From: a phage
Strand: one strand, 5' to 3'
DNA length: 1,065 bases
Sequence record: OR846431.1
Below, one piece after another: positions 253-983 of this stretch. A model generated the notes under the pieces. The model was given only the letters and a program-made list of their open reading frames with translations, had not been told where the DNA came from and searched no databases. Positions within the stretch are counted from its first letter, which is position 1. Each line of letters starts with the position of its first letter. Made by a program: the position numbers and the translations under genes.

Positions 253-983
253 TGAATTATCAAAAAATCTATAACGACCTAATTTCCCGAGCTCAGGCTC
301 GGGAATCTTTACTAGAATATAAAGAGACACATCATATAATCCCTAAATGTATGGGAGGTTCTGATGATAAGGAAAATTTAGTTGAATTAACAGCCAGAGA
401 ACATTTTATAGCTCATCTATTACTATGTAAGATAAATGAAGGCCATTTTGGTCTTGCCTCTGCGTTAACGTTAATGGCAACAGATAAAGCTGGCAATAGA
501 ATTAATAACAGATTATACAGCTTACACAGAAAATTATTTGCTAAAGCTAATTCTGAGTTCTTTAAGAAATATTGGAAAAATAATCCTCATCCTAAAGGGA
601 TGCTAGGCAAGCATCATAAAAACGAAACTAAACAGCATGTATCTAACGTGAATAGATATGCGTGCCCATCTGTAGAAATACATAAATTCTCATTAGATGG
701 GGATTTCATAGAAACCTTTCACTCTATTGCGGCAGCGTCCCGGTCAGTTAATGGAAACGGGTCAAATATCAAATATTGTGCCGAGGGTAAATTTCAATAT
801 GCTTATGGATTTAGATGGTCATATCAACTTGATGCAAAGTTTGACAAAATAAAACCAAGAGATTATAAAGGAATCCGCGGTAAGAAATGGATTAATAATG
901 GAAGTGAATGCACGCTTATAGGTAAAGATGATATTATACCGCTAGGTTGGAAACACGGCAGAATTTTAAAGAGGAAAAATTAA
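252..983 (+). CDS. mobE: Free-standing HNH-family homing endonuclease (243 aa) with NUMOD3-like and NUMOD1-like DNA-binding modules
   Basis: Complete ORF from ATG 252 to TAA 981-983. Residues 25-57 (ETHHIIPKCMGGSDDKENLVELTAREHFIAHLL) form a canonical HNH (His-Me finger) motif: HH at aa 27-28, GG, Asn42, His51-x3-His55. Downstream are GKHHKNETKQH (NUMOD3-like), DGDFIETFHSIAAASRS...GFRWSY (NUMOD1/IENR1-like helix-turn-helix) and a basic WINNG...PLGWKHGR tail. The gene sits between nrdA and nrdB, where T4 carries mobE; the symbol is assigned by synteny and family only and was not confirmed by alignment. Confidence 0.9.
   Translation: MNYQKIYNDLISRAQARESLLEYKETHHIIPKCMGGSDDKENLVELTAREHFIAHLLLCKINEGHFGLASALTLMATDKAGNRINNRLYSLHRKLFAKANSEFFKKYWKNNPHPKGMLGKHHKNETKQHVSNVNRYACPSVEIHKFSLDGDFIETFHSIAAASRSVNGNGSNIKYCAEGKFQYAYGFRWSYQLDAKFDKIKPRDYKGIRGKKWINNGSECTLIGKDDIIPLGWKHGRILKRKN
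284..310 (+). terminator. GC-rich stem-loop (9-bp stem, 4-nt loop) followed by a short T-rich run; candidate intrinsic terminator or attenuator inside the 5' end of the endonuclease ORF
   Basis: TTCCCGAGC (284-292) pairs perfectly with GCTCGGGAA (297-305) around loop TCAG (293-296); the core 7 bp are 6 G:C plus 1 A:U. It is followed by TCTTT (306-310). It sits 32 nt downstream of the nrdA stop and 30 nt into the endonuclease coding sequence, in otherwise AT-rich DNA. The U-tract is short and interrupted, so termination would be partial at best. Confidence 0.45.
324..422 (+). other. HNH catalytic motif (His-Me finger) of the endonuclease
   Basis: Codons for E25-L57. Catalytic and metal-ligand candidates: H27 (330-332), H28 (333-335), N42 (375-377), H51 (402-404), H55 (414-416). 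All are intact with no frameshift or stop. Only two cysteines occur in this part of the protein (C33, C59), so a CxxC...CxxC structural zinc site is not evident. Confidence 0.85.
597..644 (+). other. NUMOD3-like DNA-binding motif (GMLGKHHKNETKQHVS)
   Basis: Matches the recalled G-K-H-H/S-x-E-T-K-x-K/H-x-S pattern of NUMOD3 repeats found in GIY-YIG and HNH homing endonucleases; judged by eye, not by HMM. Confidence 0.55.
687..824 (+). other. NUMOD1/IENR1-like helix-turn-helix DNA-binding module
   Basis: FSLDGDFIETFHSIAAASRSVNGNGSNIKYCAEGKFQYAYGFRWSY follows the recalled pattern (DG-x-F/I ... S-x-x-AA ... I ... G-F/Y-x-W-x-Y) seen in C-terminal DNA-binding domains of phage homing endonucleases such as the I-TevI HTH region; judged by eye. 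Confidence 0.5.
841..869 (+). promoter_or_regulatory. Candidate sigma70-type promoter (TTGACA-N17-TATAAA) inside the 3' part of the endonuclease ORF, oriented toward nrdB
   Basis: Exact -35 consensus TTGACA at 841-846, a 17-nt spacer, then TATAAA at 864-869 (5/6 match to TATAAT). The predicted start would be near 876-878, about 105 nt upstream of the nrdB ATG. It could be a chance match in AT-rich DNA. Confidence 0.3.
913..937 (+). promoter_or_regulatory. Weak candidate T4 middle-type (MotA-dependent) promoter: imperfect MotA box plus -10 TATTAT
   Basis: CGCTTAT at 913-919 is an imperfect match to the MotA-box core TGCTTtA (5/7), followed 12 nt later by TATTAT at 932-937 (fits TAnnnT). The spacing is right for a middle promoter, with a predicted start near 944, about 39 nt before the nrdB ATG. 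The box is degenerate, so confidence is low. Confidence 0.2.
968..975 (+). promoter_or_regulatory. Shine-Dalgarno / ribosome-binding site for nrdB (AAGAGGA)
   Basis: Purine-rich AAAGAGGA at 968-975, with the GAGG core 8 nt upstream of the nrdB ATG (983). It lies within the last codons (K-R-K-N) of the endonuclease ORF. Confidence 0.7.

Follow-up and report, generated by a model that had tools for sequence, protein, structure and literature searches.

In phage T4, the downstream gene nrdB is expressed from a promoter located towards the 3' end of the homing endonuclease gene mobE, as described in PMC2790892 and PMC2988022, which both cite Tseng 1990. The T4 version of a hairpin within mobE terminates approximately 30% of transcripts (PMC2790892, PMC2988022), and the promoter inside the endonuclease gene offsets this terminator, which helps the element to be retained (Tseng et al. 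1990; Wilson & Edgell 2009). For T4, it is well established as an idea that an endonuclease gene may carry the promoter of an essential downstream gene and that the selfish element is thereby shielded from being deleted. Promoters of essential downstream genes also lie within the endonuclease open reading frames of segG (upstream of gene 32), segA, segE, mobB and mobC (PMC2988022). The T4 nrdB promoter (PnrdB) is a MotA/AsiA-dependent middle promoter with the sequence TGCTTAA-N12-TGgTACAAT and a mapped start at 139878 (Hinton 2010, Table 1), 159 nt upstream of the nrdB ATG. The phage protein AsiA strongly inhibits -35/-10 promoters, whereas TGn/-10 promoters are immune to it (PMC2988021). In T4-like phages, the relevant promoter grammar is a MotA box followed by a -10 element, with or without TGn, rather than a -35/-10 pair.

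We analysed a 1,065-nt stretch of DNA (OR846431.1; hereafter the window) from a T4-like phage other than T4. It contains the end of nrdA, a mobE-type gene and the start of nrdB, all on the + strand and in the same order as in T4. The nrdA part (1-252 in the list of open reading frames) is 93-99% identical to nrdA of T4-like phages, and its stop codon (TAA, 250-252) overlaps the mobE start codon as TAATG. The mobE-type gene (252-983 in the same list) encodes a free-standing HNH homing endonuclease of 243 amino acids and is annotated as mobE in RB3; the HNH motif spans amino acids 22-44 and a NUMOD1 motif spans amino acids 147-177. Its stop codon overlaps the nrdB ATG (983-985), again as TAATG, and a GAGG ribosome-binding site lies at 971-974, in agreement with the annotation of relatives. 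The 5' end of nrdB (983-1065) was assigned by alignment to T4 nrdB and from relatives' annotations. An intrinsic terminator, found by a terminator scan, is located approximately 30 nt into mobE (284-315). Its stem (284-305) consists of nine base pairs, six of them G-C, closed by a 4-nt loop and followed by a T tract. This stem is exactly that of T4 and was invariant across ten sequences, and by analogy with T4, transcription coming from nrdA would partly stop here. The arrangement of T4 thus recurs in a mobE variant of which the 3' two-thirds are unrelated to those of T4: homology to T4 mobE covered only about the first 170 nt of the gene, alignment of the window to T4 ended at approximately nt 420 and resumed at the start of nrdB, and the window encodes NUMOD1 where T4 has NUMOD3.

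As the original prediction proposed, nrdB is expected both to require and to possess a separate promoter within the endonuclease gene, beyond the hairpin. The accompanying statement that T4 nrdB is expressed both coordinately with nrdA and separately is correct. The position of T4 PnrdB could not be transferred to the window by homology, because it lies in the non-homologous part of T4 mobE, and we rejected it as a guide. An nrdB promoter within mobE is already known from T4, and the window would be a new instance of it.

The original prediction had placed the promoter at a sigma70-type pair, TTGACA (841-846) and TATAAA (864-869). This pair is present as described, on the + strand and with a 17-nt spacer, AAATAAAACCAAGAGAT (847-863). 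Like E. coli sigma70 promoters and T4 early promoters, it has a perfect -35 hexamer and spacing within the 17 +/- 1 bp of host-type promoters, and it fits the -10 consensus at five of six positions, the A at -11 among them. It therefore matches TTGACA-N17-TATAAT at 11 of 12 positions, the sole mismatch being an A at -7. Sites this good are rare: only eight matching at 11 or more positions occur on both strands of the whole T4 genome, and simulating the window with a first-order Markov model gave a probability of 0.037 for at least one. The description of the pair as unusually good is borne out against random sequence, but not against the protein that is encoded there. Both hexamers are situated in a region (K-F-D-K-I-K-P-R-D-Y-K-G) containing the conserved MobE peptide FDKIKPRDYKG (FDKIKPRxYKG across orthologs), where they arise from the codons ttT GAC Aaa ... 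TAT AAA. When we fixed the MobE amino acids and resampled synonymous codons with T4 codon usage, a site matching at 11 or more positions appeared in 14.5% of recodings (P = 0.145). The motif is thus unsurprising, because codons for the conserved peptide readily generate it.

Unlike E. coli sigma70 and T4 early promoters, the site is intragenic with hexamers set by conserved amino acids, and it has an A at -7, no TGn and no recognisable early-promoter extras. All 58 mapped T4 middle promoters have a T at -7 once the register is allowed to shift by as much as 3 nt, as do all eight T4 sites matching at 11 or more positions. Scored as a T4 -10 element with a position weight matrix, TATAAA reached 2.2 bits, compared with 9.3-9.5 bits for the alternatives. 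The TG expected at -15/-14 is missing (861-863 read GAT), and the 'uber' architecture of T4 early promoters (UP/-35/TGn/-10; PMC2988021), judged by TGn and -10, was not found at 841-869, where the -10 is imperfect. The pair was also missing from our promoter scan, because the scan requires T as the last -10 base.

Comparison with relatives gave no sign that the two hexamers are conserved beyond coding needs. The C of TTGACA (845) is polymorphic: counting exact 35-mer matches in the records of 55 close relatives, we found at least 35 with TTGACA and 18 with TTGATA. EC101, SH7 and G50 have the TTGACA form, and RB3-type phages the TTGATA form. In nine of nine aligned ortholog sequences, the GAC codon is replaced by GAT or another codon. 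TATAAA was invariant in ten sequences compared, but the corresponding position reads TACAAG in CF1 and GTCAAA in IT22. Relatives from IMG/VR offered no useful comparison, with only two loci covering the C-terminal half.

These results make it distinctly unlikely that the pair is a working sigma70 promoter, of host or early type, with an nrdB start at about 876-878. Such a promoter would have the right orientation, downstream of the terminator and approximately 107 nt upstream of nrdB, and TTGACA is the majority allele among close relatives. A weak -10 can be compensated in part by a consensus -35 at 17-nt spacing, and some activity may occur, above all during the first minute of infection or when E. 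coli is uninfected. Nevertheless, a promoter consisting solely of -35 and -10 elements would be shut off by AsiA in the middle period, when nrdB is needed. TTGACA-17-TATAAA is a genuine feature of the sequence but probably not the nrdB promoter in the form first proposed, and its -35/-10 type differs from that of the T4 counterpart. Nor is the -10 hexamer likely to belong to a late promoter. The first six bases of TATAAAGG (864-871) fit the consensus of gp55-dependent late promoters, TATAAATA at -13 to -6 (PMC1524935), but positions 7 and 8 are GG instead of TA in what is a short, highly conserved 8-bp motif. Given this 6/8 match, the loss of the motif in CF1 and IT22 and the prereplicative expression of nrdB, we consider a late promoter here extremely improbable and ruled it out on consensus.

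Orthologs of this mobE gene in at least four further genera (Gaprivervirus, Moonvirus, Gualtarvirus and Gelderlandvirus, together with a Yersinia phage) support a different explanation for TTGACA. At the aligned position, these orthologs carry tCGCTTnn-N12-TGaTAAAAT or TGaTACAAT, that is, a GCTT-core MotA box followed at 12 nt by an extended -10 of the form TAnnnT. In these genes, TTGATAAAAT, which differs from the '-35' of the window by one synonymous base (GAT to GAC), is predicted to act as the extended -10 (TGnTAAAAT) in a MotA-box middle promoter for nrdB. The ortholog sites scored 14.5-18.9 and were the top match within 260 nt upstream of nrdB. The codons and amino acids of the spacer change among orthologs, while the box and the -10 stay. 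The GCTT core uses a rare serine codon, TCG (6% of Ser codons), and this TCG-CTT box is kept across genera. Recoding tests gave P = 0.0045-0.031 for the ortholog sites, although these lineages are not fully independent and the mobE element is mobile. Among the aligned mobE genes, the motif was absent from the ortholog of a Vibrio phage classed in Schizotequatrovirus, which we equate with the KVP40 group. No MotA has been identified in KVP40 (PMC1524935).

In the window, the aligned site reads AACTTGA (826-832), 12 nt, TGa (842-844) and CAAAAT (845-850), with a predicted start at about 857. GCTT has become ACTT in the box core, and C has replaced T at -12, so neither a GCTT-core box nor a TAnnnT -10 is present, and the score falls to 4.7. 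RB3-type relatives, which have TGaTAAAAT and hence a TAnnnT -10, scored 10.6. Because orthologs carry a MotA box and an extended -10 at this position, the proposed '-35' appears to be the decayed -10 of an older nrdB middle promoter, with TG at 842-843 belonging to its extended -10, and this older promoter would be weakened in the lineage of the window. It is unlikely that 826-850 remains the principal nrdB middle promoter, or one of equal rank, its ACTT-core box aided by glucosyl-hydroxymethyl-cytosine DNA as at T4 P46. The site does keep positional homology to the strong ortholog sites, the TGn, the A at -11 and the T at -7. ACTT-core boxes can function on modified T4 DNA (PMC2988021), RB3-type relatives retain TGaTAAAAT, and GCTT is restored in one relative. 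Its score, however, falls short of the 10th percentile (5.7) for mapped T4 promoters, there is a C at -12, and box and -10 both vary among close relatives, which suggests relaxed constraint.

The polymorphism at 845 allows a further reading. With T, the bases form TGATAAAAT, which reads as the extended -10 in a middle promoter of MotA type; the C allele gives TTGACA, a consensus -35 lying 17 bp from TATAAA. If C/T at 845 were a natural switch between promoter classes, close T4-like phages would differ in the timing and mode of nrdB transcription (host-type or early versus middle), and the nrdB promoter would have turned over among three positions inside or beside a mobile endonuclease gene. 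We give this possibility very little weight.

The preferred site for nrdB transcription lies farther downstream, at 913-937. Here, a MotA-box-like cGCTTAT (913-919) is followed by a 12-nt spacer ending in TGa (929-931) and by TATTAT (932-937), which starts 51 nt before the nrdB ATG. This was the top + strand match in the window to a promoter model trained on 58 mapped T4 middle promoters, which also served to judge the model; its score of 14.2 compares with 16.3 for T4 PnrdB and falls within the range of mapped promoters. Only 64 T4 positions score as high, of which 41 are mapped promoters, and the number of unlisted sites expected at this score is only 0.018 per 260 nt. The box has a GCTT core near -30, 12 bp from the -10 (within the 12 +/- 1 bp of MotA promoters), and CGCTT boxes occur in five mapped T4 promoters. 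The -10 combines TGn with TAnnnT (TGaTATTAT, 929-937) and reaches 9.3 bits in its -10 part. EC121 and G50, two close relatives with this mobE, encode a MotA that is 97% identical to that of T4. The 33-mer at 908-940 was identical in 55 of 55 close relatives, but the invariance cannot be attributed to a promoter alone, because the stretch without a variable site (879-942) extends well past the motif. The recoding test for 913-937 was borderline (P = 0.065).

On this evidence, independent nrdB transcription would most likely start approximately 87 bp downstream of the older start, from a MotA-type extended -10 promoter at 913-937. The predicted start at about 944 would leave a 5' untranslated region of approximately 39 nt, with the GAGG ribosome-binding site inside it. 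We infer promoter activity, start sites and MotA dependence from the sequences, their conservation and their scores, which are direct observations. As a whole, this explanation (a motif that is a by-product of codons, a weakened older promoter and an nrdB start from a second MotA-type site) seems to us moderately probable. The independent nrdB promoter in mobE that the original prediction called for would be retained, differently parsed: the MotA promoters overlapping and just downstream of the pair are its likelier drivers, which would make the case largely ordinary.

We also considered whether the 3' part of mobE may have no functional promoter, in which case nrdB would depend solely on read-through of transcripts initiated upstream of nrdA, and all the motifs would be by-products of coding. 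The T4 terminator is leaky (PMC2988022), and TAATG overlaps join nrdA, mobE and nrdB. Chance matches of approximately 14 bits do occur, as an antisense MotA-like site in the window demonstrates (box 637-631, -10 618-613, score 13.9); it decays in relatives, and we rejected it as a chance match and used it as a control. However, nine of 11 mobE-bearing sequences scanned (the exceptions being IT22 and the Vibrio phage) have one site scoring at least 14.2 within 260 nt of nrdB, where 0.018 would be expected. In addition, the rare-codon box is conserved across genera, and T4 and all relatives without mobE have a promoter or promoter-like site near nrdB. We therefore regard read-through alone as very unlikely.

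Two further candidates were rejected. The site at 800-824 (TGCTTAT-N12-TGgTCATAT, score 11.1) resembles T4 PnrdB, but its -10 lacks the A at -11, and the RB3 group carries changes in both its box and its -10 (803 T>C, 819 T>G). Within nrdA, TTGATG-17-TGgTATTAT (119-147) is identical in T4, where 5' RACE detected no start immediately upstream of mobE (PMC2790892).

The candidate sites share with T4 PnrdB a GCTT-core box, a 12-bp spacing and TGn plus TAnnnT, although the T4 start is mapped and those of the window are predicted from sequence. The distance from the start of the -10 to the nrdB ATG is 170 nt in T4, 132-137 nt in the orthologs, and 138 and 51 nt for the two predicted sites of the window. 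The promoter has apparently been rebuilt from different codons in this mobE variant. In other genera the strong site is the one at 826-850, in this clade it is the one at 913-937, which hints that the promoter moved within mobE during evolution; if confirmed, this would be a compact case of regulatory turnover inside a mobile element. Unlike in segG and the other endonuclease genes of that kind, two alternative sites appear here to have swapped roles between lineages. In T4-like phages without mobE, a promoter-like extended -10, TGaTATAAT, overlaps the nrdA stop codon and so lies in the region of the stop and the intergenic sequence, whereas the site in the window lies inside the endonuclease gene. 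The -10 hexamer of these phages is likewise 51-52 nt before the nrdB ATG, with similar ribosome-binding regions, but their MotA box is poor (score -0.8) and the sequence from the -10 to the ribosome-binding site could not be aligned by eye. For genome scanning, the locus also serves as a caution: in AT-rich coding sequence, a conserved peptide can give rise to a -35/-10 pair close to consensus.

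In the window, the last 252 nt of nrdA are followed by a mobE-type open reading frame of 243 codons (252–983) and the first 83 nt of nrdB, all on the + strand, with the nrdB ATG (983–985) overlapping the stop codon of the reading frame as TAATG. The original prediction placed a sigma70-type promoter for nrdB inside this endonuclease gene, and we confirmed the motif itself: TTGACA (841–846) and TATAAA (864–869) are separated by 17 nt and match the consensus at 11 of 12 positions. Only 8 matches of at least 11/12 occur on the two strands of the T4 genome, each of them carrying T at −7, and Markov simulations of the window's composition gave P = 0.037 for at least one such match per window. 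The site was absent from the promoter scan output because its −10 hexamer ends in A instead of T. Its codons, ttT GAC Aaa ata aaa cca aga gat TAT AAA, encode the peptide F-D-K-I-K-P-R-D-Y-K, which is conserved among orthologs of other genera. When the final 88 codons of mobE were redrawn synonymously with T4 usage, leaving the peptide unchanged, a site of at least 11/12 arose in 14.5% of trials. This rate and the conserved peptide indicate that the coding sequence largely accounts for the motif.

In T4, a MotA-dependent middle promoter located in the 3′ part of mobE serves nrdB separately (PMC2790892, PMC2988022, citing Tseng et al. 1990). Its start is listed by Hinton as T4 139878, and in the T4 sequence the promoter reads TGCTTAA-N12 (ending TGg)-TACAAT-N6-G, 159 nt upstream of the nrdB ATG. 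This position is not transferable by homology because the DNA has no counterpart in the window. Our promoter model was derived from 58 mapped middle promoters taken from the T4 genome and combines position weight matrices of two elements, the MotA box and TGn with the −10, using spacer lengths distributed as in those promoters. T occupies −7 in 58/58 of these promoters (register adjusted by up to 3 nt); their median score is 16.7, and T4 PnrdB scores 16.3. Treated as a middle promoter, the TATAAA at 864–869 scored −6.6, and alone as a −10 element it reached 2.2 bits, versus 9.3 for TGaTATTAT.

The top + strand site in the window, cGCTTAT (913–919)-N12-TGaTATTAT (929–937), scored 14.2 in this model. 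Genome-wide in T4, 64 positions score at least 14.2, comprising 41 mapped promoters and 23 unlisted positions; on one strand, a 260-nt stretch is expected to hold 0.018 unlisted sites at this threshold. The 33-mer spanning the site (908–940) is unchanged in 55/55 close relatives, and close relatives with this mobE have a MotA that is 97% conserved. The recoding P for the site is only 0.065, and the invariant tract in which it lies (879–942) is wider than the motif. Judged from sequence, 913–937 is the best current candidate for the nrdB promoter. The 64-nt tract has no variable sites among 10 sequences that differ at 83/1065 window positions, and it covers the site and reaches 34 nt further upstream; constraint on the promoter or on the protein, or a recent co-conversion, could be the cause. 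Position 943, −1 relative to the predicted start, is T uniquely in the window and C in 9/9 compared relatives, changing a MobE Pro to Leu.

Relatives that lack mobE (L088 and L089) have TGaTATAAT overlapping the nrdA stop, with the hexamer beginning 51–52 nt upstream of the nrdB ATG; TGaTATTAT in the window lies equally far from it. At the position of that element, the nrdA end in the window reads TTGTAATGAATTAT, and the mobE insertion thus appears to have destroyed this −10.

The same mobE variant lies between nrdA and nrdB in Gaprivervirus (RZ, TH15), a Yersinia phage (P8), Moonvirus (CF1), Gualtarvirus (MP1), Gelderlandvirus (CGG4-1, ABTNLPp2), Roskildevirus (IT22) and Vibrio Schizotequatrovirus (PC-Liy1). 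In all of these except IT22 and PC-Liy1, the site that scores highest as a middle promoter in the 260 nt before nrdB falls at one aligned position and reads tCGCTT(c/a)n-N12-TGaTAAAAT (TGaTACAAT in MP1), scoring 14.5–18.9 with the −10 beginning 132–137 nt upstream of the ATG. This −10, ttT GAT AAA ATa (F-D-K-I codons), occupies the exact bases of the predicted −35. The spacer between box and −10 varies in codons and even in amino acids (QPT, IPN, NPK, TPN), with box and −10 retained, and the GCTT core uses the rare Ser codon TCG (approximately 6% of Ser codons) followed by CTT. Recoding gave P = 0.0045 (RZ), 0.031 (CF1), 0.020 (MP1) and 0.0275 (CGG4-1). From these comparisons we conclude that this site is the ancestral promoter from which this mobE variant drives nrdB. 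The motif was not found in PC-Liy1, nor was it found in IT22. PC-Liy1 is assigned to Schizotequatrovirus, here taken to be the KVP40 group. No MotA has been identified in KVP40 (PMC1524935).

In the window, the old site (826–850) has the box AACTTGA, with Gln-Leu rather than Ser-Leu codons, and the −10 TGaCAAAAT, and its score is 4.7. A single GAT-to-GAC change both spoils the −12 T and makes a perfect TTGACA. Among the 55 close relatives, exact 35-mer counts showed the window's sequence in 26, TTGACA with an altered spacer in 9 and TTGATA in 18; the predicted −35 thus varies at a synonymous position. In the TTGATA (RB3) type, TGaTAAAAT is intact and the old site scores 10.6. The remnant may still add to nrdB transcription, above all in phages of the RB3 type. 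Two evolutionary details are of modest interest: the promoter appears to have moved between lineages, and a single synonymous base would decide whether the sequence reads as an extended −10 or as a consensus −35. In PsgM02F, CAA has become CAG at the base aligned to 827, a synonymous substitution of A by G that brings back the GCTT core of the old box; although the −10 is still CAAAAT, the site then scores 10.7 instead of 4.7.

The hairpin at 284–305 scores as an intrinsic terminator in a terminator scan, and its stem matches exactly that of the T4 mobE terminator, at which approximately 30% of transcripts were shown to end (PMC2790892, PMC2988022). A fraction of polymerases arriving from nrdA would presumably halt here, as in T4, and a promoter within the 3′ end of mobE would then top up nrdB mRNA. 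During a T4-type infection, AsiA prevents −35 recognition and MotA provides the upstream contact; TGn/−10 promoters are immune to AsiA (PMC2988021). The TTGACA/TATAAA pair is poorly suited to this role because it is −35 dependent, lacks TGn and has A at −7. Site 913–937 is a good fit, with its GCTT-core box, TGn and TATTAT, and would yield a leader of approximately 39 nt containing a GAGG ribosome-binding site. The original interpretation is partly supported: an independent nrdB promoter within the endonuclease gene very probably exists. Its assignment to the −35/−10 pair did not hold up: a functional promoter there is improbable, and the pair is most likely a codon by-product overlapping a decayed MotA-type promoter. 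We consider this reading as a whole, with 913–937 as the best candidate, reasonably probable.

Several free-standing homing endonuclease genes of T4 contain promoters of essential genes, including mobE/nrdB and segG/gene 32 (PMC2988022). As in T4 mobE/nrdB, the predicted nrdB promoter lies inside the endonuclease gene, but the part of the mobE variant that holds it in the window is not homologous to T4. The window would thus be a further instance of a known mechanism.

Other promoter-like matches fared less well. An antisense MotA-type match on the − strand (613–637; box 637–631, TATGAT 618–613) scored 13.9 but decays to 2.2–9.8 in most close relatives, and is therefore probably a chance match. 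A look-alike of T4 PnrdB at 800–824 also decays in relatives; both matches served as controls for the invariance of site 913–937. Within nrdA, a + strand site (119–147) has TTGATG, a 17-nt spacer and TATTAT with a preceding TG (extended −10), and is the same in T4. T4 5′ RACE found no start directly upstream of mobE (PMC2790892), and this good-looking motif is apparently silent.

The window does not come from T4; T4-like phages, among them EC101 and SH7 (99.2%), match it best, and RB3, in which the reading frame is annotated as mobE, is 95.7% identical. MobE of the window has HNH and NUMOD1 motifs. The alignment with T4 extends to approximately nt 420 and resumes at the nrdB start; the 3′ two-thirds of mobE are unrelated to T4 mobE, which has a NUMOD3 module instead. 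Only about the first 170 nt of this chimeric gene (HNH N terminus and terminator) are approximately 97% identical to T4 mobE before identity collapses, and the NUMOD3-carrying T4 counterpart is annotated as mobE plus nrdB.1. The differing modules and this collapse suggest that DNA-binding modules were swapped between HNH endonucleases occupying the same locus. TAATG overlaps occur at both the nrdA/mobE (250–254) and mobE/nrdB (981–985) junctions, which is compatible with translational coupling.
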